A stretch of 64,000 nt of DNA from positions 1 through 64,000 of IMG/VR virus record IMGVR_UViG_3300031539_000004, one strand, 5' to 3'. The notes under the pieces are model-generated. The model saw only the letters and a program-made list of their open reading frames with translations. It was not told the origin of the DNA and ran no database searches. A program made the translations under genes and the position numbers. This stretch comes from a virus. This document shows, one piece after another, positions 14,201 through 63,238 of this stretch (its first letter is position 1; each line of letters opens with the position of its first letter).

Positions 14201-15690
14201 TCTTCAACCCGACCAACCCCGACGGCCTCGTCAGCAAGGTGCTCGCGTTCAAGGACACCATCCTCGAGAAGTTCGGCGAGGTCGGGTCGGCCATCATCGA
14301 CGGCATCGCCCAAGGCATCTCGGGCGCGGCGAACTTCGTCGGCGACTTCGTGTCGAACATCGGCCGAGCCTTCGTCGATTTCATCAACGTGCAGGTGATC
14401 GACCGGATCAACGACGCCATCCCGAACTCGCTCGGGCCGGTCAACATTCCCGACAACCCGATCCCCCACATCAACCTGGCGGAAGGCGGGATCTTCGACC
14501 GGCCCACCGTGGCGCAGATCGGTGAAGCTGGCGCGGAGGTGGTCATCCCGCTGACCAACGTGGAGCGGGCGCTCGCCTTGGCCGAGCAGTCGGGCCTCAC
14601 CGCCCTCATCACTCACCAGCTCACAGGACAGGCTGTGGCGGGCGCTGCGGGCGTGGGAGCCCCTGCGGGGGCTGGCGGCCCCGGAGGGGCTGGCGGGGCA
14701 GGAGCGGGCGCTGTGGGCGCTCCTGGCGGGTCTCTGGAAGCGATCGCCAACACCGCGGGCACCGCCGTCGGTGAGGGATTCACGGCCGGGGTGACCGACG
14801 CCATCATGGCCTCGGGCGCTGCGACCCTCGACCCGGCCGCAACCGATACCGGGATGGCGGCCGGGATGGCGTTCAACGAAGGGATGACCGGCGGCCTCGA
14901 GCAGAGCGCCAGCATGGTCGAGATGGCCTCGGCCGGCGTGGTCGGCGCAGCAGAAGCCGCGGCGATCGCGGCCGCTCAGATCGCGTCGCCGTCGCAGGTG
15001 TTCTTCGACATCGGGATGAGCCTCTCCGAAGGGCTCGCCGCGGGGATGGAAGCCGGGACCGCTGCGGTCGCCGCTGCTGGCGCAGGCGCAGTCGGCGCGG
15101 CCTCTGGCGGGGCTGGCGCGGCCGGGGGTGCCGCGGCGAGCGCGATCGGGAGCTTCGAGCAGGCCGTCTCCGAGCTGAACAGCGTCGGGTACTTCGGCGA
15201 AGGTCTCCAGGGCGGCACCGACAAGACGCGGGCCAACTTCGCCAGCAACTACTTCTCCGACCCGGACCGTGCAGCCGTCCTCGCTGGCACGCCCGCCACC
15301 GTGTTCGAAGATGGATCGATGCGGCTGCTCGCCGACGGGGGCATCATCACCGACCCGACCCGAGCACTGATCGGCGAAGCGGGACCCGAGGTGGTCCTCC
15401 CCCTCACCAACCCGAAGCGGGTCCTCGAGCTCGCCACCGCGTCGGGCCTCTTCGGGGTCCTCGCCGAAGGGCTCTCGTCGGCGGTCCCGTCTGCGGGGCC
15501 GGTCGGTCAGCTCGCTGGCGTCGGAGCGCCGAGCACCCCGACACCGAACGCTGTGACCCCCCGACCCGAACCGGAACAGGTTGTAGGCTCCAGCGGCAGC
15601 ACCTTCAACATCTACGGGGTGTCCGCGGACGACGTGGTCGCCAAGATCGTCGCCCGGGAAGAGACGGCCATGAGAGGGATTCGGCGCTGA
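8218..15690 (+). CDS. Tape measure protein (TP901-like N-terminal domain), 2490 aa
   Basis: Longest ORF; TP901 core (LAKELGRTTQFSASQAADAMGFLAMAG); helical repeats; synteny after chaperones. Confidence 0.95.
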   Translation: MTDVVGTARVIIVPDTTAFAGTLSSQLAASTAAMTGAVGGLNSGLAAAQTQLATFGTSATAAGAKLTKSLTLPIVAIGGIALKAGADFQTAMLQVQAVSGATGVEFESLNDLAKELGRTTQFSASQAADAMGFLAMAGFEANEILGALPGTLNLAAAGNLELAQAADIVTNILTGYGKEVGELGAANDALVQTFTSSNTSLAQLGEAFKFVAPVAASAGLDFNEVTAALGLLGNAGIQASMAGTTLRGGIAKLAKPTNEAQGALERLGIQVNDSGGQMLPLVDIIRQFEAAGLSTADAMTIFGLRAGPGFAALVSQGADALGDLTTQNALAGEEAELAAKALGLEGSVAEGLTEAFLASLPVIQQYNENTDETTAILGALTVAGQDASESAESLAGIVTSFNTDAGAFAEALGGAADGLGFMVDETGQLVQTLPDGTVEVVSLLEAVTLLEGAGLSTQDLMAKFGDTVGGDLAAALSVGSEEMLKIFEETGKAGRAAEIAEIQMSGVRGSMLRLKSAAEGVAIAFSEAGVLDALAKFAEFLTNIFSKLATANPAIFKFVAVVGLIAASIGPVLLIIGKLSTGLAALSVRLTAFSVGGAIGGAIKGIKALGLVLGNIGKQLLLIAFNPVTLAIGLFVGAMVLAWKNSEALREAVGRLADILGGIFAGTLGAVGDAVSKLAGLLGDKLAVAGEFLGDKIAVLVDAFADWLENGLAAVSSFIEGSVVPAVSKLGDFLGELASALSSTLGPAIDKVVEVVEFLADVFNQAAFGMENAAFFAGDLEAPIAILGETFFRLGVFVRDVIEIFEIGIDVIKVIADEGLANLTSAVGNVIDAFRALASGDFDGFVDSIRMAGDDALEAVVNFAIEIPLQFFDTLAVGMQAGLDQLASIDVLSPLVASVSAGLTTVVNLVSNLGGAIAAALRGDFDQAGEFFSSFLDNLGTLITTNIPAVLSGLSELISGPVSDAVSNALTAAVGAVKDIPVVGPLAEGIQLIIESAIDLVAGRLDFFSKIFQGDFGGAVEVLRGRFSILLDRAATILFELIPAALGDLGTVIGETLVVAFDGLANVLEGTPLEGIFRTLAELAEPLAGFLADNLVPALATLATILLGFAGASVVPGIIAGIAGALATVGAVIATILSPIGLLVAGIAAIGFAFFKLLQDNEGFREGVLNAINAVVEGFTKIPDVIGVVVEKFGAIVDAIVGFEPLQRAIENVGVIITGLLPILDSFIGAIVNDIVPALQENLLPIIENVASVVGTVLQVAFAALTIAIEKVTEVIAALVDAGLFDAVADAVGFAGEAFGSAIEAIRGFTDIIAGIFSGDLDQITEGITGLAQGILDTFTSVLADLPGAALDAILSVNDVIFGGLSNIPVIGELFETIQQVIGDVGIALQGVFDILGGIFSLDGSRILDGLAGVGEGFLLLLGEAFTNLPELLAGILGDGIPIILGAFSGIGEFIADKLSEVPLLGEIFETIGQVVNDVADGLSGIFDIIAGIITLDPGRIAEGLGGLGESLLGIFREALTAIPEILVDIISDAVPFIADALGGIGDFLSGLFDDVPIIGEIFDTIGSTITGVGDALGGIFDIIAGIVSLDFGRVIDGIKELAGGIGNALFGILANVPQLLADLGFLILDGLAAAFPAIGTFFTDTVLPAIGTALAALPGLIGSALSGAADLLGALAGWLLGVIVSFGAWIFSDGIPAIIDFFVGIPAAIGDFFSGGGADDGGGAGGGLIDWATKAFAQLGEWLVNDGIPAVVEFVAMLPGKIVEALAGVGSFIWDGIVVAFNFVRDNIGEWVGTIAEFFNPFNADSIWAKAAGLLLEVGSFLWDAISGVLGFVFDNFGEWAGTLAEFFNPFNADSVWARAVLAAAEVGSFLWDALSGLLGFVFDNFGTWIGTLAEFFNPTNPDGLVQRAIGLAATMGETIWNGIVGGFNFVKDNIGTWVGSVVEFFNPLNPEGLVQKAIGFFSTAGETIWGGISGAFTFIKDKVGEAITGIAEFFNPTNPDGLVSKVLAFKDTILEKFGEVGSAIIDGIAQGISGAANFVGDFVSNIGRAFVDFINVQVIDRINDAIPNSLGPVNIPDNPIPHINLAEGGIFDRPTVAQIGEAGAEVVIPLTNVERALALAEQSGLTALITHQLTGQAVAGAAGVGAPAGAGGPGGAGGAGAGAVGAPGGSLEAIANTAGTAVGEGFTAGVTDAIMASGAATLDPAATDTGMAAGMAFNEGMTGGLEQSASMVEMASAGVVGAAEAAAIAAAQIASPSQVFFDIGMSLSEGLAAGMEAGTAAVAAAGAGAVGAASGGAGAAGGAAASAIGSFEQAVSELNSVGYFGEGLQGGTDKTRANFASNYFSDPDRAAVLAGTPATVFEDGSMRLLADGGIITDPTRALIGEAGPEVVLPLTNPKRVLELATASGLFGVLAEGLSSAVPSAGPVGQLAGVGAPSTPTPNAVTPRPEPEQVVGSSGSTFNIYGVSADDVVAKIVAREETAMRGIRR
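12148..13010 (+). repeat. TMP repeat block A (83/94/94-aa spacing)
   Basis: DI(I/L)xGI starts at 12148, 12397, 12679 and 12961. Confidence 0.75.
13609..14220 (+). repeat. TMP repeat block B (five units, exact 147-bp period)
   Basis: GAGTTCTTCAAC (EFFNP) at 13609, 13756, 13903, 14050 and 14197. Confidence 0.9.
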
Positions 15691-17525
15691 TGTGGCATGG
15701 ATACGGCTACCTCACCCGCGGCACCGACCGAGTGGAGATCTGGAACAACGACCGGGTCCTCCACTACCTCCAGGGCGACCCGCTCGGCCTCACCGGCTCA
15801 CCGCCCGTCAACGGGCTGAAGCACAAGACGACCAGGGTCGAGGTCAACTGCGGATGCACCACGCTGCGGCCCCTCTACTGCGAGAAGGGGTCCGGCACCG
15901 ACGGCGCGTACCGGTCGCCCGAGCTGGACGGCGCACCGTGGTACGACCCTGACGTTCCCGAGTCGGCCGAGTTCGCCGGGCTCATCGTGGAGACCATCGA
16001 GGGGTTCGACTCGGTCGTCCGACGCACCGTCACCGACGCCGCGATCCGAGGCGGATCCCTTGGCCCGCAACGCCTCGGGGCGCGGACCCTCACCGTCACC
16101 GGCTGGCTGCGCGCGAAGACGTGCTGCGCCGCGGAGTACGGCCTCCGCTGGCTCGAGGCGGCGCTCACCGGGGGGGCGTGCGACGACTGCGCTCTCGGCG
16201 AGCTGTCGATGTTCCGGTGTTGCCCACCCGATGACGAGGGCGGCTACTTCGAGCAGGTCCCCCCCACCGCTCAGTTCGACCCGCAGACCCCTGGGACGCT
16301 CACCGTCACCGACCTCGGCGGCGGGATCTACGACTTCGTCTACGACGACTTCGATCGCAGCAACGTGGTCTCGTTGCAGGGCGGCGCTGTGAACAACGCT
16401 CTCGGGTTCCTGCCCGTCACCCTCAACGGGGCCGACCCCGAGGGCATGGCCCAAATCAGCATCGGAGCTGACCCCGCCGGCCCCGAGATCAACTTCTCGA
16501 TCTCCTACGGGCTCATCACCGCTCAGGCTGACGTGGCGTCCGGTACTGGCCGGGAGCTGTCGCTCACGATCGACACGAACATCGACCTCGGGCTCCCCGT
16601 CGAGAACCAGACCCGCGACGACCTCGCCGCCGCGCTCGCCGACTGGATCACCCTCTACGGCGACGGCGCGGTCATCGCAGCCAAGCCGTTCTCGAACGGG
16701 CGGGCCTACACCGCGAAGGATGGCCCCGACCCAGCGAACTACGACCGGGAGGTGCTACGCCTCGGGCTGGTCGACGGCCCCACCGTCATCGAACGGAACG
16801 GGACCTGCTGCGACTCGTGCGGATGCACCGACCTCCGGGTCCAGTTCACCCTCGCATCGGAGTCGCCGTTCATCTTCGGGCCGATCGACTGGTGCCTCGA
16901 GGACGCCAGCTTCCTCACCGAACCCGAGAACGAATACTGCCTCAGCCTGTTCTGTGGCGACTGCCCCGAGGCGGCCGACCCGTTCTTCCGGCTCACCTGC
17001 GGTGGCGACACCATCTTCGCCCCGCCCCCGGTGTTCAACCCGATCATCACCTGCTACTGCGACCCGTGGGTCCAGTACCGGATGTGCTGCTCGCTGAGCA
17101 ACGAGGCCGACTGGAACGAAGCGTCGACCGTGATCCGCGTCGAGGCCGGCAACGCGACGTTGCGCCACATGAAGATCCAGGCGTTCATCAACCCGTTCGG
17201 CGATGACCGGCCATGCCCGTGCGATCCCGACGACCTGTTCTGGCTCTGCCGGGACCCGTGCTCGGTCATCGAGATCGCCGAGCTTCCCTCGGGGTCGATC
17301 CTCACCGTCGATTCCCGCTCGAGGATCTCCACGCTCGAGCTGGCCGGCGGCGGTTCGCAGGGCGGCACCCGGTTCATCACCGGGGAGCGGGGCGTCCCGT
17401 TCGAATGGGTCGACCTCGCCGCCTGCTCGACTGTCTGCTTCCTCATCACCGTCGACGCGAACCACTCGAGCCAGACCAAGGTGTCGGTCGGCGTCGCTGA
17501 GAGGTTCCAGGCCAGTGGCGGTTAG
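15690..17525 (+). CDS. Minor tail protein (distal-tail/Dit-like) with inserted domain
   Basis: First gene after TMP; GAPWYDPDVPESAEFAGL and LGARTLTVTGWL…EYGLRWLEAAL actinophage minor-tail motifs. Confidence 0.75.
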   Translation: MWHGYGYLTRGTDRVEIWNNDRVLHYLQGDPLGLTGSPPVNGLKHKTTRVEVNCGCTTLRPLYCEKGSGTDGAYRSPELDGAPWYDPDVPESAEFAGLIVETIEGFDSVVRRTVTDAAIRGGSLGPQRLGARTLTVTGWLRAKTCCAAEYGLRWLEAALTGGACDDCALGELSMFRCCPPDDEGGYFEQVPPTAQFDPQTPGTLTVTDLGGGIYDFVYDDFDRSNVVSLQGGAVNNALGFLPVTLNGADPEGMAQISIGADPAGPEINFSISYGLITAQADVASGTGRELSLTIDTNIDLGLPVENQTRDDLAAALADWITLYGDGAVIAAKPFSNGRAYTAKDGPDPANYDREVLRLGLVDGPTVIERNGTCCDSCGCTDLRVQFTLASESPFIFGPIDWCLEDASFLTEPENEYCLSLFCGDCPEAADPFFRLTCGGDTIFAPPPVFNPIITCYCDPWVQYRMCCSLSNEADWNEASTVIRVEAGNATLRHMKIQAFINPFGDDRPCPCDPDDLFWLCRDPCSVIEIAELPSGSILTVDSRSRISTLELAGGGSQGGTRFITGERGVPFEWVDLAACSTVCFLITVDANHSSQTKVSVGVAERFQASGG

Positions 17526-18636
17526 CGGACAGGCGATCCTCGGCTCGGGCGACGACCTTCGGGTGCTGCTGATGACCCGGGGCGGCGGGCAGGTCATCAC
17601 CGAAATCAACCCCGACTCGGGGAGCTTCAACCGGAAGCTCGACGGGACCACCGCGGCGTCGCTCGTCGCGACCGTCAGCGGCGGCGACCTGCGGTCCTGC
17701 TGCGACGAGTTCGCCGAAGCCTACGCCTGGGCCACAGAGCTGCTCATCACTCGAGACGGCCGCGACCAGTGGGCCGGCCCCATCACGAACCTCGTGTTCG
17801 CGTACGGGTCCGTGAGCGTCGAAGCGTCGGACCTCACCGCGTGGTGGGACCGCCGGGTCCTCCCCGACGAGTGCCACTTCCAGGTGGACCTGGCCGACAT
17901 CTTCCTCGACTACCACGCCGCGGCGATGGCCTCCGACCCGTCACCGAACATCGTGATCTCAGCGACCCGCACCGGGATCCTCGGCGACCGGCAGGTCTTC
18001 GGCGATGACTTCGACTACGCCTCCGACCACATCCATGAGCTCACCCGCACCGGTCTCGACTTCACCGCCTATGGCCGGACCGTCATCGTCGGCGGCGAAG
18101 AGATCCCGACCGACCCGATCGTCACCCTCACCGACGAGGACTGGATCACCCCGCCGACCGTGCAGGAGCGCGGCAACGAGCAGGCGACCGTGGTCGTCGT
18201 CCGTGGGAACAGCGAACAGGTGAAGTTCAGGGCCGAGGCCCGCGACCCCGACTACGTCAACTTCTACGGCGAGATCGTCCGGGTGTTCAACGAGGGCGAG
18301 ATCCGAGACGAACCCAGCCTGCAAGCCGCGGCGCAAACCCGCCTCGATCTGCTCAAGGACCCGCTCTACATCGTCCCCCCGCAGAACGCTGGGCTTCGCT
18401 CCACCGCCCCGATCACGCTCACCGAGCTGGTCCCCGGCGCTCGAGTTCGGGTCGACACTCAGGCGACGTGCCGGAAGATGGTCCGCGACTTCCGGCTCGC
18501 TGAGGTGTCCGTCAACTTCGACGGGACCGTGTCGATCACCCTGCAGCCGATCGGAACCACGCAGTCGGGTGGCCCCGGCTCGGGAGCGCCAGCCGAGCAG
18601 AACGGTTCCAACTGTGCCGCGCTGCCCGTCGCGTAG
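17515..18636 (+). CDS. Minor tail protein (baseplate hub/Tal-like)
   Basis: GTG start overlapping the previous gene; WATELLITRDGRDQWAGPI and LVPGARVRV motifs of siphovirus hub proteins. Confidence 0.7.
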   Translation: MAVSGQAILGSGDDLRVLLMTRGGGQVITEINPDSGSFNRKLDGTTAASLVATVSGGDLRSCCDEFAEAYAWATELLITRDGRDQWAGPITNLVFAYGSVSVEASDLTAWWDRRVLPDECHFQVDLADIFLDYHAAAMASDPSPNIVISATRTGILGDRQVFGDDFDYASDHIHELTRTGLDFTAYGRTVIVGGEEIPTDPIVTLTDEDWITPPTVQERGNEQATVVVVRGNSEQVKFRAEARDPDYVNFYGEIVRVFNEGEIRDEPSLQAAAQTRLDLLKDPLYIVPPQNAGLRSTAPITLTELVPGARVRVDTQATCRKMVRDFRLAEVSVNFDGTVSITLQPIGTTQSGGPGSGAPAEQNGSNCAALPVA

Positions 18637-18647
18637 TATCCGGTGCC

Positions 18648-19112
18648 ATGAGCTTCCGAGTGGAGGGCCAGTCTTTCGCCGAGTGGGTCGAGAAGATGGA
18701 GGGCGACCTCCGGTACCTCTACAAGTGCTGCGAGGGCGGGCTGGGCGGTAGCTGGACCGTCATCGCGTCGAACTCCTCCTACGACTGGTCTGGCGACGGC
18801 TACTCCGAGGTGTGGACGTCCGAGCTCGGGACGGCCCGACTGGTCGAGGTGTTCGCTTCGGGTGTGGCCGGCGCTGGCGGCACGGTATCGGTCACCCACT
18901 CGGGCCTCGGCGTTGTCGCGTCGCTGACCTTGGTGGGGCTGACCGGCGAAGTCGCGCTGAACCCGACGGTGGTCTTCAACCCCGGCGAGCGCCTCCAAGT
19001 GCTCACCCCCTCGGGTGGCGGCGTCAGCGGGCTGACCGTCCAACTGCTCTTCGAAGGCGACGTGCGAGCATCCGGCGGGCTCAACATCTACCGGGGTGAA
19101 GCGCCCGCATGA
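18648..19112 (+). CDS. Minor tail protein, paralog 1 of MSFR…YKCCE triplet
   Basis: N-terminus shared with the next two genes; beta-rich C-domain. Confidence 0.7.
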   Translation: MSFRVEGQSFAEWVEKMEGDLRYLYKCCEGGLGGSWTVIASNSSYDWSGDGYSEVWTSELGTARLVEVFASGVAGAGGTVSVTHSGLGVVASLTLVGLTGEVALNPTVVFNPGERLQVLTPSGGGVSGLTVQLLFEGDVRASGGLNIYRGEAPA

Positions 19113-19588
19113 GTTTCCGGGTGGAGGGGGAGACCCCCGATGAGCAGATCGAGTCGATCGAGGAGGCCCTCCGGTACCTCTACAAGTGCTGCGAGCGATC
19201 GAACGCGAGCGAAGGGTTCGAGCTGCTGGTCGCCGGCCAGGGCCAGATCGACGGCGACGACTCGAGCGAACATTGGTACGTCACCGTCGGCCCGGTCCGA
19301 CTCGAATCGTTCGCTGCGACGTTCGTGGACCCGGTGACCCTTCCCTTCACCGTCGAGCTCGACATCGACGGGACGCCGTCGGGGCACACCATCACCATCC
19401 CGGTCGGGTCTGCCTCCGCGGTGGCGGTCATCAACCCGCCGGTCACCCTCAACCCGGGCCAGTACATCCAGCTCACCGTGACCCTTGGCAGCGAACCCGA
19501 CCCTCGGGTTTCGATCTTCGGAACGTCGGCGGCCTACTGCCCGAGCTTCGGTGGTCAGTTCACCGAGGACCCCGGCGGCCCCGCATGA
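19109..19588 (+). CDS. Minor tail protein, paralog 2
   Basis: MSFRVEGETPDEQIESIEEALRYLYKCCE; ATGA overlap. Confidence 0.7.
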   Translation: MSFRVEGETPDEQIESIEEALRYLYKCCERSNASEGFELLVAGQGQIDGDDSSEHWYVTVGPVRLESFAATFVDPVTLPFTVELDIDGTPSGHTITIPVGSASAVAVINPPVTLNPGQYIQLTVTLGSEPDPRVSIFGTSAAYCPSFGGQFTEDPGGPA

Positions 19589-20061
19589 GCTTCAGGAACC
19601 GGGGCGAGACGCTTGAGGAGGTGATGGCCGGCATCGAACGCGACGTCCGGTACATCTACAAATGCTGCGAGGCTGGCGGCGGCGATGTGTTCTACGAGGT
19701 GGACGTGGCAAGCGGCGACGAGTCGGTCGACTCGTCGGCTCTCACGGGTCGTTGGTATTCCCGGGGCGGCACAGCGTCGGTTCGGGGGCTGCGACTCTCG
19801 AGCGACGAGACCGGGTTCTCTGACCTCGTCGTGGAGGTGCGCGTCACCGGGGTGGTCGTGCAAACGGTGGTCCTCCCCGCGGCGGCGGCCACCGTGGAGG
19901 TGTTGCTCGGCGGTCCGGTGGCGCTCGCCGCGAACGATTACTTGTCGCTCTCCTGCTCATCGGGGGCGCGGTCGTTTGTGAACGCGCAGGTACTGATGGT
20001 CGGCGACTGGTGCGGCTCTGGTGGATTGAACTGGTGGTTCGTCGGCGGCGGCCCCGAGTGA
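19585..20061 (+). CDS. Minor tail protein, paralog 3
   Basis: MSFRNRGETLEEVMAGIERDVRYIYKCCE; ATGA overlap. Confidence 0.7.
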   Translation: MSFRNRGETLEEVMAGIERDVRYIYKCCEAGGGDVFYEVDVASGDESVDSSALTGRWYSRGGTASVRGLRLSSDETGFSDLVVEVRVTGVVVQTVVLPAAAATVEVLLGGPVALAANDYLSLSCSSGARSFVNAQVLMVGDWCGSGGLNWWFVGGGPE

Positions 20062-20636
20062 CGACCTGGGTCGTGTCGGGGATGCCGCGCTCGGGCACGT
20101 CGATGATGATGCGCGCCCTCATCGCAGGCGGCCTCGAGCCGTACTGGAACCCCGACAAGGACGCCGAGCTCGCCAAGATCGCCGCGCCGAGATACCACCC
20201 GAACCCGAACGGCTACTTCGAACCAGGCCAGGCGCGCCACACCCGAGCGTTCCCGCGGCTCATCGACGGGAAGCTCGTGAAGCTCATGGGCGTCGGCCCC
20301 GCCGAACCACGGTTCCGTCAGGCCGCCCCGATCCGGGTCGTGTGGATGCGTCGCCCGCCAGCCGAGATTCGGGCGAGCCACCTCGCGACCTTCGGGCGGT
20401 GCCCGCCGTGGACGGCCGACAACCGGTACCCGACGATCGCCGCCGCGAGGATCGCTCACCAGACCTCGGTCCCGTGGGTCGAAGGGCTCGCCGTGGTCGA
20501 CTACCCCGATGTCACCGACCCCGCTACCCGCCTCGAGCAGTTCGAACGACTCACCGCCGAGGGCTGGCCGATCGACCCCGAGGCCGCCGCGGCGACGATC
20601 GACGGGGCGCTGCATCGCCACCGGGCCGAGGGCTAG
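20058..20636 (+). CDS. Sulfotransferase-family protein 1
   Basis: 5'-PSB loop VSGMPRSGTSMMM, HPNPNGYFE motif and VWMRRPPAEIRAS; GTGA-coupled to the tail gene. Confidence 0.75.
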   Translation: MTTWVVSGMPRSGTSMMMRALIAGGLEPYWNPDKDAELAKIAAPRYHPNPNGYFEPGQARHTRAFPRLIDGKLVKLMGVGPAEPRFRQAAPIRVVWMRRPPAEIRASHLATFGRCPPWTADNRYPTIAAARIAHQTSVPWVEGLAVVDYPDVTDPATRLEQFERLTAEGWPIDPEAAAATIDGALHRHRAEG

Positions 20637-20675
20637 GACTACGCTGACCTCAGCCGCTACCCCCGAGGAGGCACC

Positions 20676-21467
20676 GTGAGCTGCGGGTGCGATGAGGTCT
20701 GCAACTGCGCTGTGGTCGGCGGGAACTGCGTCCAGGTCGTCGGCGACGGCCGGCCCACGTCGCCGTACACGGTCAACGTGGTGGTCTCGGCCGACGCCGA
20801 CAACGCCATCTCCTGCGAACCGAACGGCCTCTTCGGCCAGAACGGCGTCGTCACCGCCGACACCGACTGCATCGACCTGAGCGGCACAGGCAAGATCGGC
20901 GACCCGATCACCGCCGACGTGGTGATCTCACCCGACTCCGGGAACCGCCTCGAGTGCCGGGCGAACGGGCTGTACGCCTACCCGTGCCCCGACATCTACT
21001 GCTGCTGCGACGCCCCGTCGTTGCCGATCAACGCCACGTCCACGACGTTCAATCTCCCCCCCGGCTGCGATCTCGAGATCGCCGACGGCGACTGGCGGGT
21101 CAACATCGAGATCCTCATCGTTCTCGAGTGGGACCCGAACCAGGCTGGGGCGCTCATCGAGCTCGGCGCGTCCTACGACGTCACGGGCCTCTGCACCCTC
21201 CCCGACGTGTTCAACGTCACCTGCGACGCCCCTCAGCTCGTCACTCAGTTCCGAACCGGCGGCCCCGGCTCCGCCGAAATCGAGACCCTGTTCTTGATCA
21301 GCAGCTTCGACGTGACTGGCCCGCTCTCCGTCACCGTGGTCCCACAGATCGTCACCGGGGTTTCTCACGCGGCGATCGTCACCGCCGAGGACTACACGGT
21401 CACCGCCATCGTCGGCCAGGTCCCCGCGGACCAGCCGAACAACCTCTGCACGGTCTGCGCGCCCTGA
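20676..21467 (+). CDS. Cys-rich tail fibre/spike protein 1
   Basis: SD AGGAGG; MSCGCDEVCNC; repeated SxDxxNxxxCxxxGL shaft-like motifs; beta-rich C-domain. Confidence 0.6.
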   Translation: MSCGCDEVCNCAVVGGNCVQVVGDGRPTSPYTVNVVVSADADNAISCEPNGLFGQNGVVTADTDCIDLSGTGKIGDPITADVVISPDSGNRLECRANGLYAYPCPDIYCCCDAPSLPINATSTTFNLPPGCDLEIADGDWRVNIEILIVLEWDPNQAGALIELGASYDVTGLCTLPDVFNVTCDAPQLVTQFRTGGPGSAEIETLFLISSFDVTGPLSVTVVPQIVTGVSHAAIVTAEDYTVTAIVGQVPADQPNNLCTVCAP

Positions 21468-21472
21468 TCGCG

Positions 21473-22087
21473 ATGAAGTACCTCCTCTTCGGCCACCCCC
21501 GGGGCGGCACCTCGACCGCTATGCGTGGCCTCTACTTCGCCGGCATGAACGTGTGGCGCGATGTCCGTCGCGACCAGAAGGCTCATCGCGACGCCGACCG
21601 GGAAGGCTTCACCAAGCACCCGAACCCCTACGGGTTTTGGGAGGTCCCCTACGGCGTCGGCCGCGAGCACGACTGGCCGAACAACCTGCCCGACGGGTGG
21701 GCGGCGAAGGTGTTCGCCCCCACGATCCGCCAGCTCCGCGACCGCGGGACCGGCGAGTGGATGGTCGCCTACCTCACCCGCGACCCCGACGAGATCGCTG
21801 CCAGCTACCGGCGAATGATGGGCCGCCCCACGATGCGTTGGCGCACCGCCGACCAGTACCACGCCCGAGTCGACCAGGACATTGCCCGCCTCGAGGCCAT
21901 CGGTTGCGTCGTGTCGGTCACCCGCCTCGACTACAACGCCATGTGCGCCGACCCGCCTGCCTCCACGATCGCCGAGTACCAACGCCTCGCCGACGCCGGC
22001 TGGCCGCTTGACCCCCGAGCCGTCGCGGAGCTCATCGACCCGGCGTTGCGCCGCAACGTGAGGGAGGCCGACCTTGCCACGGTGTAA
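21473..22087 (+). CDS. Sulfotransferase-family protein 2
   Basis: LFGHPRGGTSTAM, HPNPYGFWE and AYLTRDPDEIAASY; paralog of 20058-20636. Confidence 0.7.
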   Translation: MKYLLFGHPRGGTSTAMRGLYFAGMNVWRDVRRDQKAHRDADREGFTKHPNPYGFWEVPYGVGREHDWPNNLPDGWAAKVFAPTIRQLRDRGTGEWMVAYLTRDPDEIAASYRRMMGRPTMRWRTADQYHARVDQDIARLEAIGCVVSVTRLDYNAMCADPPASTIAEYQRLADAGWPLDPRAVAELIDPALRRNVREADLATV

Positions 22088-23789
22088 GTGCCAAGAGGTG
22101 TGCTTCTGCTCGCTCGAGCTCGACGCCGACGAGACGTGCCTGTCGCTCACGGGTGCGGGTACCGGCGACGATCCGTACACGTTGCTCGGCGTCATCGACC
22201 CCGACGTGGCGAACGAAGTGGAGTGCCGGCCGAACGGGCTGTGGATGGGCCGTGACGACAACGTCGCCGACACCGACTGCATCGACCTCACCACCGTCGA
22301 GCAGCCAGGGATCGCGTCAAAGATCCTGACCGCCGACTTCATCATCTCGCCCGACGCCTGCAACGTCCTCGAGTGCCTCCCCCCGGGCGACGACCCCGAC
22401 ATCGACAGCGCCGGGCTGTGGGCGCGCCCCGGACCGCAGGAATGGTGCTGGTGCCTCACCCCCGCTTCGCCCGATGGGCAGCTCATCGGCCCGGGTGAGG
22501 TGGAGATGCTCGGCCCCGAACCGGACGAAGAGACCGAAGACAACGGGCTGCGGTTCACGATCATCGAACCGGGCTGCTACCGGCTCATCCTCAAGGGCGA
22601 GGTCTATCTGGCATGGACCCCGAACCAGGCTCCCGGCACGGTCGGCGCGTCAGTCCAGGTTGGGATCTCGCCGGTGTCGCCGTTCGACAACTGCCTGTTC
22701 GTGGACCCTGAGTTTGGCGAATACATCTACCAGTACGCCGTCTGCGATCCAGCCGCGTGGCGCACCCTCTACCGGATCGGCGGCGTGCTCGCTCCCGACG
22801 AGACCCAACACATCCCGTTCATGGCGTCGTTCGATTACACGATCACCGATGCGCTCGCCCCGACCGTGATCCAACCGCGCATCGTGGTCGGCAACATCGG
22901 GACCGGTCCCACAGATCTGCGGGTCACGGGCGGCACCGCGAAGGTCATCATGGGCAGCCCGCCGGCGCATCAGCTCGGCGACAACAACTGCTCGAGCTGC
23001 TACGGGTACTCCAAGACCGGGACGTTCTATTCGGTCCCGAACACGACGACCACCGCGTCGACCACCACCACCACGACGGGCGGCGCTGGCCTGTTCCTCA
23101 ACATGGGCGAAGCTGGGATCAACCCGGGGTGGGTCATGCGCTGCGACCCGGGCACCGGGACCGTGATCGTGCCCCGCCGCTACGACTGGGGCACCCAAGC
23201 CTTCAACGGTGAGGCGATGACCTCCGACCCGGTGGCCGGCTTGCTCTACCACATCGGCGGCGGCGGCGGCGGCCCGCTGATGTCGGTCGACCCGAACACC
23301 CTCGCGACCGGCTCGGTGGCGATCGGCCCCCCGACCGGACCGCCGCTGGGGATGGCGTGGGACGGCACCGACGTGTGGCTGTCGGACGCCAACGCCATCC
23401 TCTACTCGATCACGCTCGCCGGGGCCGTCACCACCGTGGGGACGATGGACGAACGGATGCCGGGCATCGAGTGGATCGGCGCGACGTTGTGGGCGGTCAA
23501 CCGTGACTGCTCGCTCCTCTACGAGATCGACTCGAGCGACGGATCGACCCTCGCCACCACGCCGATCACGTTCGTCTCAGGTCCGCAGACCCCCGACTTC
23601 GCTCACGGCCTCGCCTACGACGGGGCCGATCTCTACATCTCGTACGCGCTTCCCGAGACCGGGTTCGGGAACTATCGCCGCCGCCTCGGGGTCATCGACA
23701 CGTCGAACGGTGAGCTCGCCGATGTCGGCCAGTTCACCAACGCCGGCAATCCCGGCGGCTGGCAGGTGTCCGACCTCGCTTTCCTGTGA
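22074..23789 (+). CDS. Cys-rich tail fibre protein 2 with C-terminal beta-propeller-like domain
   Basis: Same N-terminal shaft motifs, a Thr-rich linker, then GMAWDGTDVWL / GIEWIGATLWA / GLAYDGADLYI blade-like repeats. Confidence 0.65.
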   Translation: MPRCKCQEVCFCSLELDADETCLSLTGAGTGDDPYTLLGVIDPDVANEVECRPNGLWMGRDDNVADTDCIDLTTVEQPGIASKILTADFIISPDACNVLECLPPGDDPDIDSAGLWARPGPQEWCWCLTPASPDGQLIGPGEVEMLGPEPDEETEDNGLRFTIIEPGCYRLILKGEVYLAWTPNQAPGTVGASVQVGISPVSPFDNCLFVDPEFGEYIYQYAVCDPAAWRTLYRIGGVLAPDETQHIPFMASFDYTITDALAPTVIQPRIVVGNIGTGPTDLRVTGGTAKVIMGSPPAHQLGDNNCSSCYGYSKTGTFYSVPNTTTTASTTTTTTGGAGLFLNMGEAGINPGWVMRCDPGTGTVIVPRRYDWGTQAFNGEAMTSDPVAGLLYHIGGGGGGPLMSVDPNTLATGSVAIGPPTGPPLGMAWDGTDVWLSDANAILYSITLAGAVTTVGTMDERMPGIEWIGATLWAVNRDCSLLYEIDSSDGSTLATTPITFVSGPQTPDFAHGLAYDGADLYISYALPETGFGNYRRRLGVIDTSNGELADVGQFTNAGNPGGWQVSDLAFL

Positions 23790-23838: not shown

Positions 23839-24540
23839 ATGTCGATGAGCGAACCATGCCTAGCGGAAAGCTGCGGGCTGATGTGGAGCGGCGAAGGCAA
23901 CCCCGGCTCGCTTCTCCAGCTCGACATCGATCTCAGCGGCGAACCGAACCAGGCGATCGAGTGCCGGGCGAACGGGCTGTACGGGGAGCGTTGCGAAGTC
24001 TCGGCGGTGGCGTGCAACGGGGTGAAGATCGCCCCACAGGACGGCGGGAACTGGACCCACCAGATCGACGGCCAGGCGTTCGCCAGCACGCAACCCGGCG
24101 GGTTTGCGTTCCTCGACGCAGGCTTCGCGGGAGCCATCTCCGAGGAGCTCTACCAGAGCGCGTCGATCGGGGTGACTCTCGACGGGTGCGTCCCGTCGAT
24201 GGTCTTCTACAAGATCCAGCTCGGGTCGGTTCGGGCTGAGGGGGGCGGGACTACCCGGTGGGAGCTGCAGGACACGGCGTCGATCAACAACGGGCCGTTC
24301 AGCACCATCGGGTTCGCCGTGTGGGACAACAGCCTCACCGGCAGCTTCGGGGACTACGGGTTCTATCCCGACCTCGATGGTTCGACGCTCGGCCTCGCGA
24401 CCGCTTCCGGTAGTAGCTTCAATCTCTCCTTCCGGCGAGAGGTTCTGCTCACCTTGCCCTTCGGCGGTTTCGGATCTGGCAACATCGAGTTCGCGCCGAC
24501 CATCATCGAAATGCGATTCCTAGCGATCTCGGGGACGTGA
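23839..24540 (+). CDS. Tail fibre-family protein 3
   Basis: NQAIECRANGLY and VVACNG-type motifs shared with neighbours. Confidence 0.55.
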   Translation: MSMSEPCLAESCGLMWSGEGNPGSLLQLDIDLSGEPNQAIECRANGLYGERCEVSAVACNGVKIAPQDGGNWTHQIDGQAFASTQPGGFAFLDAGFAGAISEELYQSASIGVTLDGCVPSMVFYKIQLGSVRAEGGGTTRWELQDTASINNGPFSTIGFAVWDNSLTGSFGDYGFYPDLDGSTLGLATASGSSFNLSFRREVLLTLPFGGFGSGNIEFAPTIIEMRFLAISGT

Positions 24541-24550
24541 GGAGAACCAA

Positions 24551-25210
24551 ATGGCGAACCCCTGCATCACCGACACCGACTGCATCGGCCTCAGCCTCGA
24601 TGACGAGGGCAACCTCCGAGCTGACCTGATCATCTCGCCCGACGCCGACAACCAGCTCGTCTGCCTCGATGACGGTCTCTTCGGGAACATCTGTCCGATC
24701 TCAGTCGTGGCGTGCAACGGGCTGCTCAAGCTGCCCGACGGGCTGTGGGCGCACAAGCTGTCCCGCAACATCGCGCAGTCGCAGTTCGGGTCGGTGACCG
24801 TCGGTGTTTCCTCGGGTGGCGGGAACATCACCCTGCAGAGCGGCACCCAATCGATCAAGAACACGGGGTGCGCGCCGGCGCTCATCTACCGCAACATCGC
24901 CTTCGGGACCACCCATGTCACGGCGATGACGGCGGGCGGACGAGTCGAACTCGAGGCGCAGGTGCGGATCGACGGTGGCCCGTGGAACGACTACGGCTTC
25001 GCGGTGCTCCAGAACTTGACCGGCGTGGGCGGCCTCGAGCATGCGTGGTGGCCGGTCCCGGCGATCGACATCGGGTTCGCGACGCTGGCGGCCGGGGCGA
25101 CTCAGTCTGTTGAGTGGCGGCGGCGCGCCGAGGCGACCTCGGGGTCTTGCACGGTGAACTACCAGACGGTGTTCATGTGGACGAACGTCCTTTCGATTTC
25201 GGGGCTCTAG
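24551..25210 (+). CDS. Tail fibre-family protein 4
   Basis: SD AGGAGA; TDTDCIGL, ISPDADNQLVCLDDGLF and VVACNG motifs. Confidence 0.6.
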   Translation: MANPCITDTDCIGLSLDDEGNLRADLIISPDADNQLVCLDDGLFGNICPISVVACNGLLKLPDGLWAHKLSRNIAQSQFGSVTVGVSSGGGNITLQSGTQSIKNTGCAPALIYRNIAFGTTHVTAMTAGGRVELEAQVRIDGGPWNDYGFAVLQNLTGVGGLEHAWWPVPAIDIGFATLAAGATQSVEWRRRAEATSGSCTVNYQTVFMWTNVLSISGL

Positions 25211-27023: not shown

Positions 27024-27236
27024 ATGCCCGAAGAGGACGAGATCGACATCGCCGCCGCCGCTGACGAAGCAGCGAAGCTCGAGGCCCCGGACCGGGTGCC
27101 CGAGGACGACGACGACGCCCACCCCGAAGACATCCCCGCCGAGCTCATCGAGCTGTCGGTGGCGCTGGACACCGGGGACGCCGAGAGCACCGCGGCCGCC
27201 GCGGCCGAGCTCGCGACGATGGGGGGCCAGGCATGA
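27024..27236 (+). CDS. Acidic peptide coupled to endolysin
   Basis: SD AGGAG; about one-third D/E; ATGA overlap with the endolysin. Confidence 0.55.
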   Translation: MPEEDEIDIAAAADEAAKLEAPDRVPEDDDDAHPEDIPAELIELSVALDTGDAESTAAAAAELATMGGQA

Positions 27237-28282
27237 GTACCCTCACCGACCCGCTGACCGGCGAGAAGTTCTCGTACCTCACCCGCGCCGAGTGGGGCGC
27301 TCGCCCGCCGAAGTACCGCAACGGGCTGGCGTCGACGGCGAACGGTGTGTTCATGCACCACACCGTCACCAGCATCGCGCCGGCCGCTTCGATCTGGCGT
27401 GCCGTCCAGAACTTCCACATGGACACCCGAGGCTGGGCCGACGTGGCCTACTCGTTCGGGATCGATGTGGTGACCGGCCAGATCCTCGAGGGGCGCGGCA
27501 TCGGGATCGCGGGCGGTCACACGGCCGGCTACAACTCCTCGTCCCACGCGATCTGCTGGATTGCGAACACCGACGACGTGAACCCGACCGCGGCAGCGAA
27601 GCGGGCGTGGCTGGCGGTGCTCCACACGATCGAGGCCCGCTACGGCAACGGCCCCGAGCGCGGGCACCGCGACGTGGCGCAGACCGGCTGCCCTGGCGGC
27701 TACGGGTACACCTGGCTCAAGGCCGGGTTCCCGACCTCGGGATCGCCGGGCGAACCGCCGCCGCCGCCGCCTCCTCCGCCGCCTTCGGGTACTCGGGTCC
27801 TCGCCAAGGGCATGGTCGGCGACGACGTGAAGCAGTGGCAGACCCGGCTCGCCGGGCGCGGATACTGGATCGCCGCGGACGGTGCGTTCGGTGATCTCAC
27901 CGAGGGCGTGACGAAGTGGTTCCAGGAGGGCCGCAAGATCGATGTGGACGGCAAGGTCGGTCCGCAGACCCTCGCGTCGATGACCGCAGCGGAGAAGGAG
28001 AACTGGAAGCCGTCGCTCGGCGGCCCGGTCAAGCCGACCCCGCCGGCGACCGCTGGTCCTCCGTGGCCGGGCCGGTACCTGAAGAGGGGGATGTCGGGCA
28101 ACGACGTCCGGGTCTGGCAGGCGCGCATGAAGCAGCGCGGTTGGAACCTCGCCGCGGACGGCCAGTACGGACCCGCGTCGGAATCGGTGTGCCAGAAGTT
28201 CCAGGCCGAGAAGCGTCTCGGGGTCGACGGCATCGTGGGTCCGGCGACGTGGGACGCGACGTTCAACTCGCCGATCACCTGA
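27233..28282 (+). CDS. Endolysin: N-acetylmuramoyl-L-alanine amidase (Amidase_2) + two PG_binding_1 domains
   Basis: TRAEWGARPP, HHT, NFHMDTRGWADVAYSF, GHRD; poly-Pro linker; two G(M)xGxDVxxWQ…ADGxFG domains. Confidence 0.92.
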   Translation: MSTLTDPLTGEKFSYLTRAEWGARPPKYRNGLASTANGVFMHHTVTSIAPAASIWRAVQNFHMDTRGWADVAYSFGIDVVTGQILEGRGIGIAGGHTAGYNSSSHAICWIANTDDVNPTAAAKRAWLAVLHTIEARYGNGPERGHRDVAQTGCPGGYGYTWLKAGFPTSGSPGEPPPPPPPPPPSGTRVLAKGMVGDDVKQWQTRLAGRGYWIAADGAFGDLTEGVTKWFQEGRKIDVDGKVGPQTLASMTAAEKENWKPSLGGPVKPTPPATAGPPWPGRYLKRGMSGNDVRVWQARMKQRGWNLAADGQYGPASESVCQKFQAEKRLGVDGIVGPATWDATFNSPIT

Positions 28283-60968: not shown

Positions 60969-63101
60969 ATGGCGCAGGACTTTGTGCGAGTGAGCAAGGG
61001 CCAGATCCGCCAGTACGCGTGCCCCGAGTGCGGTGCGAGGCCCGGCGGCTACTGCGAGGGCCGCGAGGAGACCGGCACGAACCATCGGGAGCGGATGATC
61101 GTCGCGCAGAACGCCGAGTACGAGCGGGTCAACGGTCACCCGTTCGAACGGCCCGAGGAGCCGACGCCGGCCGCCGAGCCGCATCCTTTCGAGATGCCGG
61201 GGCGCGAGTTCACCGACGCCGAGATGCCGGCGATGGCCCCGGAGGTGCGCCCGGCCCCGAGCTCGGCCCCGAGTCGGGCGATCACCGGGGGGTTCGCTCC
61301 GACCGACGAGCAGCTCGAGGCGGTGGACCTGGCGGTGACCGGCGACAACCTCGCCGTCGAGGCGCTGGCGGGGACGGGCAAGACGACCACGTTGAACCTG
61401 ATCGCCGAGGCGAAGCCCGAGGACGGGATCTACGTCGCGTTCAACAAGGCGATCGTGACCGAGGCGAAGCAGAAGTTCCCGAGCCGGGTGACGTGCGCGA
61501 CCTCGCACTCCCTGGCGTTCCGGGCGGTCGGCCACCGGTACAAGCACCGGTTGAACGGGCCGCGGATGAAGTCGTGGCAGATCGCGAAGCGGCTCGGGAT
61601 CGGTTCGCAGCCGGTCGAGACTTCGTTGGGACGCCAGATGTTCCCGGCCGACAAGATCGCCGGGATGGTGATGAAGGGCGTCCGGGTGTTCTGCCAGTCA
61701 GCGGACCGTGAGATCGGGACCCGCCACATCCCGCTGCCGACGACGATGCGCGACGACCCGGAGATGACGATTGCGTTCGGGATGATCCGCGACAGCCTCG
61801 GCGATGAGATCCGGGCGGCGTGGGCCGACGTGCGGAAGGTCGACGGGCAGCTCCCGTTCGATCACAACGCCTACCTGAAGCTGTGGTACCTCGAGGACCC
61901 GTTCATCGCGACGGACTACATCCTGTTCGATGAGGCGCAGGACGCGAACGGGGTGACGCTCGCGATCGTGGAGGCGCAGAACGATCACGCTCAGCTCGTC
62001 TTCGTCGGCGACCGCCATCAGGCGATCTACGGGTGGAACGGCGCGGTGAACGCGATGGAGCGGGTCGAGGTGGCGCATCGGGCGTGGCTGACGACGTCCT
62101 TCCGGTTCGGCCCCGAGATCGCTGAGGCGGCGAACGAGGTGCTCGACCTCCTCGGAGCGGAGCACCATGTGATCGGCGCGGGCCGGCCAGGGACCCGAGG
62201 CGAGTGCGACGACCCGTCGATCCTGTTGTCGAGGACGAACGCTGGCGCGGTGATGGGCGCGCTCGAGGAGATCGAGAATGGCGGCCGGCCGCATGTGATC
62301 GGCGGCGCGGACGACGTGGTCGGCTTCGCTCGGGCGGCGTCGAAGCTGCAGCGGGGCGAGATGGTCTCCCATCCCGACCTGATCTGCTTCACGTCATGGG
62401 GCGAGGTGAGGGCCTACGTCAAGAACGACGAGCTGGGATCGGACCTCGCTCTGCTGGTCGGCATCATCGACCAGTTCGGCGCGGACGAGATCGTGGACCT
62501 CCTTGAGCACCAGCCGCGCGAGCGGGACGCCACGCTGATCCTGTCGACGGCTCACAAGGCGAAGGGCCGGGAGTGGGAGTCGGTGAGGCTCACCCCGGAT
62601 CTGGCGAAGTCGGGGACCGAGGAGCAGCGGTTGCGCTATGTGGCGACGACTCGGGCGAAGGCTCACCTCGATGACGCGAAGCTGCTGGCGAAGCTGGCCG
62701 AGGATGATGAGCTCGCCGATGAGCTGAACCTCGATGAGCAGATGGTGATGGCGTCGCTCGACCAGGCCGCTGCCGATGAGGCGGCCGCTGAGGGGCCTGT
62801 CGTGGCCGCCGAGGCACCGGAGGCCCCACCGGCCCCCGCCGTTGTGGATGAGGCGGTGAGGGCCTACGAGCGTGCGTTCGGGCGGGAGGCGCTCGAGCGG
62901 CAGGAGGTGGCGGCCAGAGCCGCGGGTCGGCTTCTGGCGGCGGCGGGCGAGGTGGTGAAGCACCAGACGGCGATGATGGGCTGGCCGAGGGATCCGAACA
63001 GCCCGATGTACGAGCTGGCCGAGGCTGGCCGCGAGGCCGACCTGGCGATGTGTGCGGCCGGCTGGATCGAACCCGACGACGAAGAAGTGGAGCTCTTCTG
63101 A
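60969..63101 (+). CDS. UvrD/Rep-like SF1 helicase with N-terminal Zn finger
   Basis: CPECGARPGGYC; ALAGTGKTT; FDEAQD; VGDRHQAIYGW; TTSFRFG; STAHKAKGREW; YVATTRAK. Confidence 0.92.
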   Translation: MAQDFVRVSKGQIRQYACPECGARPGGYCEGREETGTNHRERMIVAQNAEYERVNGHPFERPEEPTPAAEPHPFEMPGREFTDAEMPAMAPEVRPAPSSAPSRAITGGFAPTDEQLEAVDLAVTGDNLAVEALAGTGKTTTLNLIAEAKPEDGIYVAFNKAIVTEAKQKFPSRVTCATSHSLAFRAVGHRYKHRLNGPRMKSWQIAKRLGIGSQPVETSLGRQMFPADKIAGMVMKGVRVFCQSADREIGTRHIPLPTTMRDDPEMTIAFGMIRDSLGDEIRAAWADVRKVDGQLPFDHNAYLKLWYLEDPFIATDYILFDEAQDANGVTLAIVEAQNDHAQLVFVGDRHQAIYGWNGAVNAMERVEVAHRAWLTTSFRFGPEIAEAANEVLDLLGAEHHVIGAGRPGTRGECDDPSILLSRTNAGAVMGALEEIENGGRPHVIGGADDVVGFARAASKLQRGEMVSHPDLICFTSWGEVRAYVKNDELGSDLALLVGIIDQFGADEIVDLLEHQPRERDATLILSTAHKAKGREWESVRLTPDLAKSGTEEQRLRYVATTRAKAHLDDAKLLAKLAEDDELADELNLDEQMVMASLDQAAADEAAAEGPVVAAEAPEAPPAPAVVDEAVRAYERAFGREALERQEVAARAAGRLLAAAGEVVKHQTAMMGWPRDPNSPMYELAEAGREADLAMCAAGWIEPDDEEVELF

Positions 63102-63238
63102 TGAACGTGACAGTGACGACGTGGACCTGCGATCGGTGCGGCGCGACGGTCGAGACCGACCAGGGCGAGCAGCCGAAGGACTGGTCGGCGGTGAAGTTGA
63201 CGGGTCATCGTTCGGCGTCGTTGTGGGGGAGGCCGTGA
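63101..63238 (+). CDS. Small Zn-ribbon peptide
   Basis: WTCDRCG; TGATG coupling on both sides. Confidence 0.4.
   Translation: MNVTVTTWTCDRCGATVETDQGEQPKDWSAVKLTGHRSASLWGRP

Follow-up and report, generated by a model that had tools for sequence, protein, structure and literature searches.

Introduction

Sulfation confers a permanent and strong negative charge on its acceptor, and in eukaryotes it makes protein-protein and protein-glycan contacts of high specificity. Enzymes that transfer sulfate from 3'-phosphoadenosine 5'-phosphosulfate (PAPS) include the tyrosylprotein sulfotransferases TPST1 and TPST2 and, in the bacterial world, RaxST of Xanthomonas, which is paired with RaxX. Their minimal signature consists of a basic residue in the 5'-phosphosulfate-binding (5'-PSB) loop, a Ser in the 3'-phosphate-binding (3'-PB) region, and a His or Glu base between the two (PMC6637879; PMC9372746), and in the typical eukaryotic context two to three sulfotyrosines are clustered in a flexible segment (PMC9372746). 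Phages are also known to modify their own particles, and O-glycosylation of mycobacteriophage virions by phage glycosyltransferases is reported (Freeman et al. 2023, as cited in later papers). The stretch considered here, referred to as the window, covers positions 1-64,000 of a 128,695-bp virus record in IMG/VR (IMGVR_UViG_3300031539_000004) rated complete by CheckV, and it carries two genes for putative compact sulfotransferases, ST1 and ST2, that are interleaved with tail-fibre genes. On the plus strand the order is tape measure, two minor tail genes, a trio of small tail paralogs, ST1, fibre 1, ST2, and fibre 2. An initial annotation of the window had suggested that each enzyme sulfates the neighbouring fibre or a host surface molecule, and knew of no described phage virion-sulfation system. 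A literature search found none: neither sulfated phage particles nor the sulfotransferases of actinophages were the subject of any paper returned, phage sulfotransferase genes being mentioned only in passing.

Evidence for a compact sulfotransferase fold

ST1 and ST2 are very probably functional PAPS-type sulfotransferases, an assignment drawn from a family profile and a predicted structure and not from motifs alone. Direct searches with the two proteins returned few matches. ST1 matched the Pfam family Sulfotransfer_3 (PF13469) over the 5'-PSB loop only, with an E-value of 0.016 and a score of 15.9 bits that falls below the curated gathering threshold of 27 bits, and a Pfam scan of ST2 gave no match. 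Nothing was found by a PHROGs scan of ST1, ST2, both fibres, and small paralog 3, or by single-sequence searches of the PDB, and an NCBIfam scan of ST1, ST2, four homologs, small paralog 1, and the downstream fibre-like paralogs g233 and g219 returned no sulfotransferase family. Searches of GenBank phages matched neither the region at the DNA level nor ST1 or fibre 2 at the protein level. The link to PF13469 is instead transitive, because many homologs carry the relevant matches: a large protein database holds 98 relatives of ~190 residues, about one-third of them with precomputed matches to PF13469 and/or PF00685.

An alignment of 60 family sequences shows no variation at R11, T14, S15, K75, R99, and S107, and each of these residues is present in ST2 as well. 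The motifs on which the initial annotation relied (GMPRSGTS and NPNGYFE in ST1, GHPRGGTS and NPYGFWE in ST2) are present as described, the first of each pair containing a 5'-PSB loop of the family form P-[KR]-[ST]-G-T-[TS] (PRSGTS in ST1, PRGGTS in ST2) that aligns to the loop GVPRSGTT of TPST1. The Arg and Ser of the 3'-PB region are the invariant R99 and S107, which are eight residues apart, are associated with strand 92-98 and helix 101-112 of the ST1 model, and lie in a region that aligns in the profile to the R...S region of SULT4A1, SULT1A, and TPST1. No His is present at the position expected from SULT enzymes (K75+2), and the candidate base is a Glu, E55, found in the sequence NPxG[YF][FW]E between both PAPS motifs, conserved in at least 90% of the 60 sequences and also present in ST2.

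When the family profile was compared with the PDB, all of the significant matches were sulfotransferases, namely SULT4A1 (1e-5), SULT1A (1e-4), Stf1 (1.6e-4), and TPST1 (5e-4). An AlphaFold (AF2) model of ST1, with a predicted local distance difference test score (pLDDT) of 94.2 and a predicted template modelling score (pTM) of 0.91, was used in an exhaustive structural search, in which TPST1, TPST2, and a tick TPST ranked first to third (Z 12.1, 11.9, and 11.6, with 163 residues aligned), followed by the OLS sulfotransferase (Z 10.6) and StaL (Z 9.8). The top six natural proteins in this search were sulfotransferases (Z 9.6-12.1), and natural kinases scored at most 9.4. Foldseek, by contrast, mixed shikimate kinases with sulfotransferases and placed a shikimate kinase first (E 3.6e-4), an ambiguity that is resolved by the exhaustive aligner taken together with the profile search and the motifs. 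A P-loop nucleoside monophosphate or shikimate kinase was rejected as an identity for the family, as the Walker A motif GxxxxGK[ST] is absent and the equivalent stretch, G8-xxxx-G13-T14-S15, has an invariant Thr in place of the Lys in the 60 sequences. Of the two possibilities against which the initial annotation had weighed its proposal, this replacement rejects kinases, and the intact cofactor and candidate catalytic residues make an inactive fold very improbable. The best match in BFVD was a 183-residue 'Sulfotransferase family protein' of an uncultured member of the Caudovirales (A0A6J7WIG0; template modelling score 0.78-0.81, 29% identity). The original designation of both proteins as Sulfotransfer_3-type enzymes is therefore sound with respect to the PAPS-type fold and residues, which are intact, but not with respect to the Pfam family itself, to which ST1 is a sub-threshold match and ST2 no match. 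ST1 and ST2 are filed here as new members of the superfamily and not as TPSTs, falling below the curated Pfam threshold and being ~100 residues shorter than any characterised member.

Gene junctions, translational coupling, and selection

The junctions of the two genes agree exactly with those first reported. The GTG start of ST1 (20058) lies within the sequence GTGA that includes the TGA stop of small paralog 3 (20059-20061), an overlap of 4 nucleotides (nt), ST1 itself preceding fibre 1, and the ATG start of ST2 (21473) is 5 nt 3' of the fibre 1 stop. Fibre 2 starts with a TTG (22074) inside the end of ST2 (22087), so that these two genes overlap by 14 nt. Strong Shine-Dalgarno sequences precede both fibre 1 (GAGGAGG) and fibre 2 (AGGGAGG); neither ST1 nor ST2 has a Shine-Dalgarno sequence of its own, and their translation must therefore occur by coupling. 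A coupled sulfotransferase gene beside a strongly initiated fibre gene would fit the production of a scarce enzyme next to an abundant structural protein.

Paralogy links ST1 to ST2 (30% identity, E 2e-20) and fibre 1 to the first 310 residues of fibre 2 (31% identity, E 6e-25), a pattern beyond chance that gives the region the look of a duplicated two-gene cassette. In the tree of the family, however, ST1 and ST2 are not resolved as sisters, leaving a recent duplication of the cassette without support, and an origin by ancient duplication or by separate acquisition is possible. Comparison with a related fragment, L061, gave ratios of nonsynonymous to synonymous substitution rates (dN/dS) of 0.16 for ST2, 0.32 for fibre 2, 0.40 for fibre 1, and 0.49 for ST1; all four genes are under purifying selection, with ST2 the most constrained.

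Conserved linkage in close relatives

Linkage of sulfotransferase and fibre genes, which the initial annotation had made a touchstone of its proposal, was found in a neighbourhood survey of other genomes (L061, L070, and L016). In L061 the order ST1 (68.5% identity), fibre 1 (76%), ST2 (90%), and fibre 2 (79%) is the same, and the 14-nt overlap of the sulfotransferase gene with fibre 2 is kept in both L061 and L070. The latter encodes an 836-residue ortholog of fibre 2 that is only 35% identical, and its gene overlaps by 14 nt the one for the last 32 residues of a protein of the sulfotransferase family, a C-terminus recognised by the family profile (E 1e-7) with the consensus WPIDxxxAAxxxDPxLYR. 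The persistence of this junction while the fibres have diverged so far speaks for a functional connection between enzyme and fibre.

A different arrangement is found in L062 and L063, where the small paralog trio (76-85% identity; 83% for paralog 1 and 85% for paralog 2 in L062) is followed, again across a 4-nt overlap, by an ST1-like gene (48% identity). In neither of these relatives does a fibre gene follow: the sulfotransferase gene ends the operon, with a GTAG-N9-CTAC operator and then an unrelated gene beyond it. In L062 (1856-1988) the GTAG-N9-CTAC palindrome (GTAGTACGGTTATCTAC) is directly 3' of the ST1-like gene. The arrangement in L062 and L063 indicates that ST1 has its conserved partner in the paralog trio 5' of it and not in fibre 1. 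The suggested pairing of each enzyme with its neighbouring fibre is thus upheld by the linkage of ST2 and fibre 2, but does not extend to ST1. The dN/dS of small paralog 2 is 0.19. As a separate observation, the members of the trio (18648-20061) have an invariant N-terminal motif, MSFR..G..E....R[YF][LI]Y[KR]CCE, and belong to no Pfam or PHROG family.

The compact family across phages

The compact family, whose carriers are mainly phages, is common in uncultured ones and is almost always located inside head or tail operons. Relatives of ~190 residues are encoded in 58 IMG/VR loci, and in 25 of the best 29 loci in which the sulfotransferase was recovered by open reading frame calls the gene abuts a neighbour on the same strand. 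At a cut-off of E ≤ 1e-26, genes at most two positions away from the sulfotransferase gene in 33 viral loci represent 19 PHROG families; head, tail, connector, and terminase functions account for 13 of these, unknown functions for five, and sugar metabolism (heptose activation) for one. Individual loci illustrate the range of these settings: a tail-fibre gene is directly 5' of the sulfotransferase gene in L016 and two genes 5' in L010, a central tail fibre J gene is upstream of it in L014, the major head protein gene is two genes upstream in L023 and L025, and in L066, with the layout portal-229-94-ST-193-375, it is found between portal and capsid-region genes.

In L016 (1762-10459, 37% GC) the genes encode, in order, a tail fibre of 1,408 residues, the sulfotransferase, a 480-residue protein with a weak match to CBM96, an APS kinase, a 172-residue protein, and a P22-type stabilisation protein. 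The APS kinase gene, two genes 3' of the sulfotransferase gene, ties the family to PAPS within a tail module. Part of a sulfate-donor pathway is encoded by this phage itself, within its tail module. In six loci (L004, L011, L012, L013, L016, and L017) a common protein family is encoded directly 3' of the sulfotransferase gene, overlapping or abutting it, with a motif like LRFQ..IP.GATI.SATL...GDDVDNA; apart from the weak CBM96 match it received no PHROG or Pfam assignment, and it could be another recurrent acceptor or partner. Outside phages, a Desulfatiferula olefinivorans assembly (L068:5318-6651) encodes a cellular homolog of the sulfotransferase, which shows the compact family in a cellular setting. 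Its gene comes after one for a DUF3592 protein and has a 4-nt overlap with that of an EI24/CysZ-like membrane protein, a further pointer to PAPS.

The fibre proteins

The term fibre is used here on the basis of predicted features, namely the architecture of the repeats, a propeller-like C-terminus in fibre 2, and a position between the minor tail and lysis genes. Both proteins are rich in Cys and strongly acidic, and their common domain begins with an invariant N-terminal CxCxxxCxC and is closed by CxxC. Fibre 1 consists of two N-terminal beta-hairpin repeats and a C-terminal part without assignment. In fibre 2, the N-terminus of which (MPRCKCQE) is conserved in orthologs, a linker at residues ~308-336 (nt ~22995-23081) is made up of the CxxC, a Tyr cluster, and a poly-Thr tract, and residues 337-571 have DUF4394, DUF6923, and Vgb-like propellers as structural neighbours in the Atlas. 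The poly-Thr linker that had been noted in fibre 2 is present also in L061 and L070, and the cluster of three to four Tyr residues followed by ~10 Thr, just C-terminal to the CxxC, is kept in all three orthologs. No Ser/Thr tract is found in fibre 1 or in the small paralogs. The fibres have no match among GenBank phages, and pattern searches of viral, genome, and metagenome contig collections found no fibre relatives.

The beta-hairpin repeat itself (..D.DCI.L.G.G..DP..A..ISPD..N.L.C...GL), ~47 residues long and without a Pfam model, is found at 20676-20990 and 22074-22400 of the window. It is recognised in 550 cluster representatives at E ≤ 1e-3, several of which are encoded in the surroundings of phage tail or lysis genes, and reaches 18 copies in proteins of up to 1,861 residues (among P0105-P0252). 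One 543-residue protein with four such repeats, P0118, has a weak match to 2OG-FeII_Oxy (E 7.5e-5).

Candidate acceptors

Sulfation of the virion is a plausible role for this locus. The reading preferred here, with a tentativeness that puts it somewhat short of an even chance, is that ST1 and ST2 O-sulfate the phage's own tail and fibre proteins using PAPS from the host. Both would be active, soluble, cytoplasmic, PAPS-dependent enzymes, transcribed late within the tail operon and made at a low level through coupling to the adjoining structural genes. The proteins have no signal peptide or membrane segment, which points to action in the cytoplasm, late, where virion proteins accumulate. Hydroxyl groups of distal tail proteins would be O-sulfated prior to or during assembly, with ST2 acting on fibre 2, for which the conserved Tyr-cluster/poly-Thr linker before the putative receptor-binding propeller is the best candidate site, and with ST1 acting on the small paralog trio and/or fibre 1. 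The sulfate would provide a fixed negative charge that may tune adsorption or shield the fibre. Catalytic activity, a protein acceptor, the site, and the benefit are all steps that we infer. The more specific idea that TPST-like mini-sulfotransferases put sulfate directly on fibre Tyr and/or Thr residues in the bacterial cytoplasm is possible, and is advanced with greater reserve.

A number of observations weigh against sulfation of the phage's own proteins. The lead of the TPSTs over other sulfotransferase folds is ~1.5 Z units only, the constraint on ST1 is relaxed (dN/dS about 0.45-0.49), and the enrichment for structural modules is qualitative, as it has no background of gene positions. 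Animal TPST sites typically have acidic residues nearby, which the candidate Tyr sites do not, and fibre 1, besides having an AF2 model that is poor (pLDDT 50.6) and unreliable outside residues ~20-100, is without a linker. Neither fibre has a PHROG or Pfam match, and proteins with only the N-terminal repeat in common with the fibres (L071-L073) have no sulfotransferase gene nearby, which assigns the link to the fibre 1/fibre 2 subfamily and not to the repeat itself. The search for glycosyltransferases covered two families only, GT1 and GT2, and computation does not separate a protein from a glycan or lipid acceptor, so that the acceptor named here is a candidate.

The complete genome bears on several of the alternatives. 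The earlier statement that the window has no gene for a glycosyltransferase or PAPS synthesis can be extended to the whole genome for the families sought: APS kinase and PAPS reductase are absent, and PAPS must therefore be host-made, while GT2 (PF00535) and GT1 (PF00534) are likewise absent, with positive controls, which argues against sulfation of a glycan. No integrase was found in the genome, which argues against a role in lysogenic conversion, and a lysogenic-conversion moron was rejected on this ground and because the sulfotransferase genes have no Shine-Dalgarno sequence, promoter, or terminator of their own. The initial annotation had also proposed a 2-oxoglutarate-Fe(II) (2OG-Fe(II)) oxygenase as a source of acceptor hydroxyls. 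The oxygenase is real (63052-63642; PF13640, E 7e-10), but its gene is 40 kb away in another module, directly 3' of the one (60969-63101) for a UvrD-like helicase that carries a phage zinc finger at its N-terminus, and with nothing that ties it to the sulfotransferases the link was rejected.

Active sulfotransferases might instead modify a host acceptor, such as an envelope glycolipid, a polysaccharide precursor, or a small metabolite, with late receptor masking freeing progeny from debris or with the envelope being altered before lysis. This is unlikely, but is an alternative of some weight, since characterised bacterial members of the superfamily mostly act on glycolipids, glycopeptides, and polyketides, the sulfotransferases Stf0, StaL, Teg12, and CurM/OLS are among the structural matches, some phage loci pair the sulfotransferase gene with sugar-nucleotide, methyltransferase, radical SAM, or FGE-sulfatase-like genes, and the cellular homolog is in a non-phage context. 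The overlap with fibre 2, kept at 35% fibre identity, would be hard to explain if the fibre were irrelevant, and the cytoplasmic nature of the enzymes, the coupling of their genes to structural genes without regulatory signals of their own, and the missing integrase, which makes lysogenic conversion unlikely, all count against a host acceptor. It is also conceivable, although improbable, that the poly-Thr linker is first O-glycosylated, by a host or an unrecognised phage enzyme, and that the sulfotransferases then act on the sugar. Conservation of the linker in fibre 2 orthologs would suit this sequence of events, as would the heptose-activation genes of one related locus and the precedent of mycobacteriophage virion glycosylation, but fibre 1 and the small paralogs offer no Ser/Thr tract and the complete 128.7-kb genome no GT1 or GT2. 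Host protein O-mannosylation, moreover, concerns exported proteins, and virions assemble in the cytoplasm. Very improbable is a third possibility, that ST1 and ST2 are nucleotide kinases, or that they are non-catalytic and, with a sulfotransferase or P-loop scaffold, serve as assembly chaperones of the fibres or as minor structural components. Genes that adjoin fibre genes often encode assembly chaperones, ST1 is fast-evolving, and both the Foldseek ranking and the sub-threshold Pfam matches could be read in this direction; against it are the invariant Thr of GxxxxGTS at the Walker A Lys position, the invariance of cofactor and candidate catalytic residues across 60 diverse sequences including ST2, the low dN/dS of ST2, the placement of sulfotransferases above kinases in the exhaustive search, and the phage that encodes an APS kinase two genes 3' of its sulfotransferase.

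If phages do sulfate their fibres or capsids, this would be an unrecognised means of controlling host range, adsorption, and immune or defence shielding, and it would constitute a layer invisible to predictions of receptor binding from sequence. Direct sulfation of Tyr or Thr in the fibre, if true, would be a new virion modification and a second protein-sulfation system of the bacterial world after RaxST-RaxX, and it would be a common one, given that many uncultured phages have the family in their head and tail operons. It would also supply very small, soluble protein sulfotransferases for biotechnology. With its doubled enzyme-fibre arrangement, its lack of GT1 and GT2, and a linkage kept across divergent relatives, the locus is a clean test case, for which the short conserved Tyr/Thr linker is a candidate peptide substrate.

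Genome setting

The window has a GC content of ~69%, and its source is an uncultured actinobacterial phage with a probably lytic lifestyle. The tail genes and the features that surround the sulfotransferases are collected in Table 1. The 2,490-residue tape measure protein implies a very long tail. In tblastn searches the product of the gene that opens the distal tail module was related to the 'minor tail protein' of Streptomyces, Mycobacterium, and Microbacterium phages, and the true start of the second minor tail gene is probably near 17.5 kb. Downstream of fibre 2 the two fibre-like paralogs g233 and g219 separate it from the lysis genes, a holin-like gene and the endolysin gene. A consensus scan found no promoter or terminator above background between 15 and 28.9 kb, and this region therefore looks like a single late operon.

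Table 1. Tail-module genes around ST1 and ST2, with window coordinates.
Feature	Coordinates	Strand	Basis
Tape measure protein, 2,490 aa	8218..15690	+	
Minor tail protein (Dit-like), opens distal tail module	15690..17525	+	phrog_838, E 1.9e-53
Minor tail protein	17203..18636	+	phrog_837, E 7e-39, residues 105-452
Small tail paralog 1, 154 aa	18648..19112	+	N-terminal motif common with paralogs 2 and 3
Small tail paralog 2, 159 aa	19109..19588	+	Same paralog motif
Small tail paralog 3, 158 aa	19585..20061	+	Stop overlaps ST1 start
ST1, probable compact PAPS-type sulfotransferase, 192 aa	20058..20636	+	Family alignment, model, structure search
Fibre 1 (putative), 263 aa	20676..21467	+	Paralogy with fibre 2 N-terminal domain; position
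ST2, probable compact PAPS-type sulfotransferase, 204 aa	21473..22087	+	Paralogy with ST1; family residues
Fibre 2 (putative), 571 aa	22074..23789	+	Fibre 1-like N-terminal domain, linker, propeller-like C-terminus
Fibre-like paralog g233, 233 aa, one fibre-repeat copy	23839..24540	+	blastp to fibre 1 orthologs; alignment with g219
Fibre-like paralog g219, 219 aa, one fibre-repeat copy	24551..25210	+	Alignment with g233
Endolysin, end of tail module	27233..28282	+	Peptidoglycan hydrolase and PG-binding matches

Comparison with known systems

The phage-borne compact family is already named in databases, though unstudied: A0A6J7WIG0 belongs to the same compact family as ST1 and ST2, and the entry carries an automatic name only. 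Among sulfotransferases that have been studied, TPST1 and TPST2 (5WRI, 3AP3) and a tick TPST (8W5Z) are the best structural matches of the ST1 model, and the phage proteins have in common with them a PRSGT-type 5'-PSB loop, with Arg instead of Lys, a 3'-PB Arg and Ser eight residues apart, and Glu, not His, as the candidate base. Sequence identity is nonetheless only 14-15%, the phage enzymes lack the Golgi membrane anchor, and the candidate Tyr sites are non-acidic. Stf0, StaL, Teg12/14, CurM, and OLS have the same fold and PAPS motifs (Z 8.4-10.6), but the phage proteins are much shorter and are encoded in virion operons and not in biosynthetic clusters.

With RaxST-RaxX of Xanthomonas (PMC6637879) the locus has in common a soluble, bacterial-type enzyme whose gene adjoins that of a presumed protein substrate, the difference being that the phage genes are part of a tail operon whereas RaxST-RaxX is a secreted-peptide locus. 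The phage sulfotransferases, at ~190 residues, are also smaller than the known enzymes of the TPST and RaxST kinds (~270-380 residues), and are without their extra substrate-cleft and dimer elements. The nearest parallel in phage biology is the reported O-glycosylation of mycobacteriophage virions, in which, as proposed for the present locus, a phage transferase acts on the phage's own structural proteins, with hydroxyl-rich tracts as likely acceptors. The present locus differs in that the group transferred would be sulfate from PAPS and not a sugar, in the absence of GT1 and GT2, and in the interleaving of the enzyme genes with those of the fibres instead of a location elsewhere in the genome.

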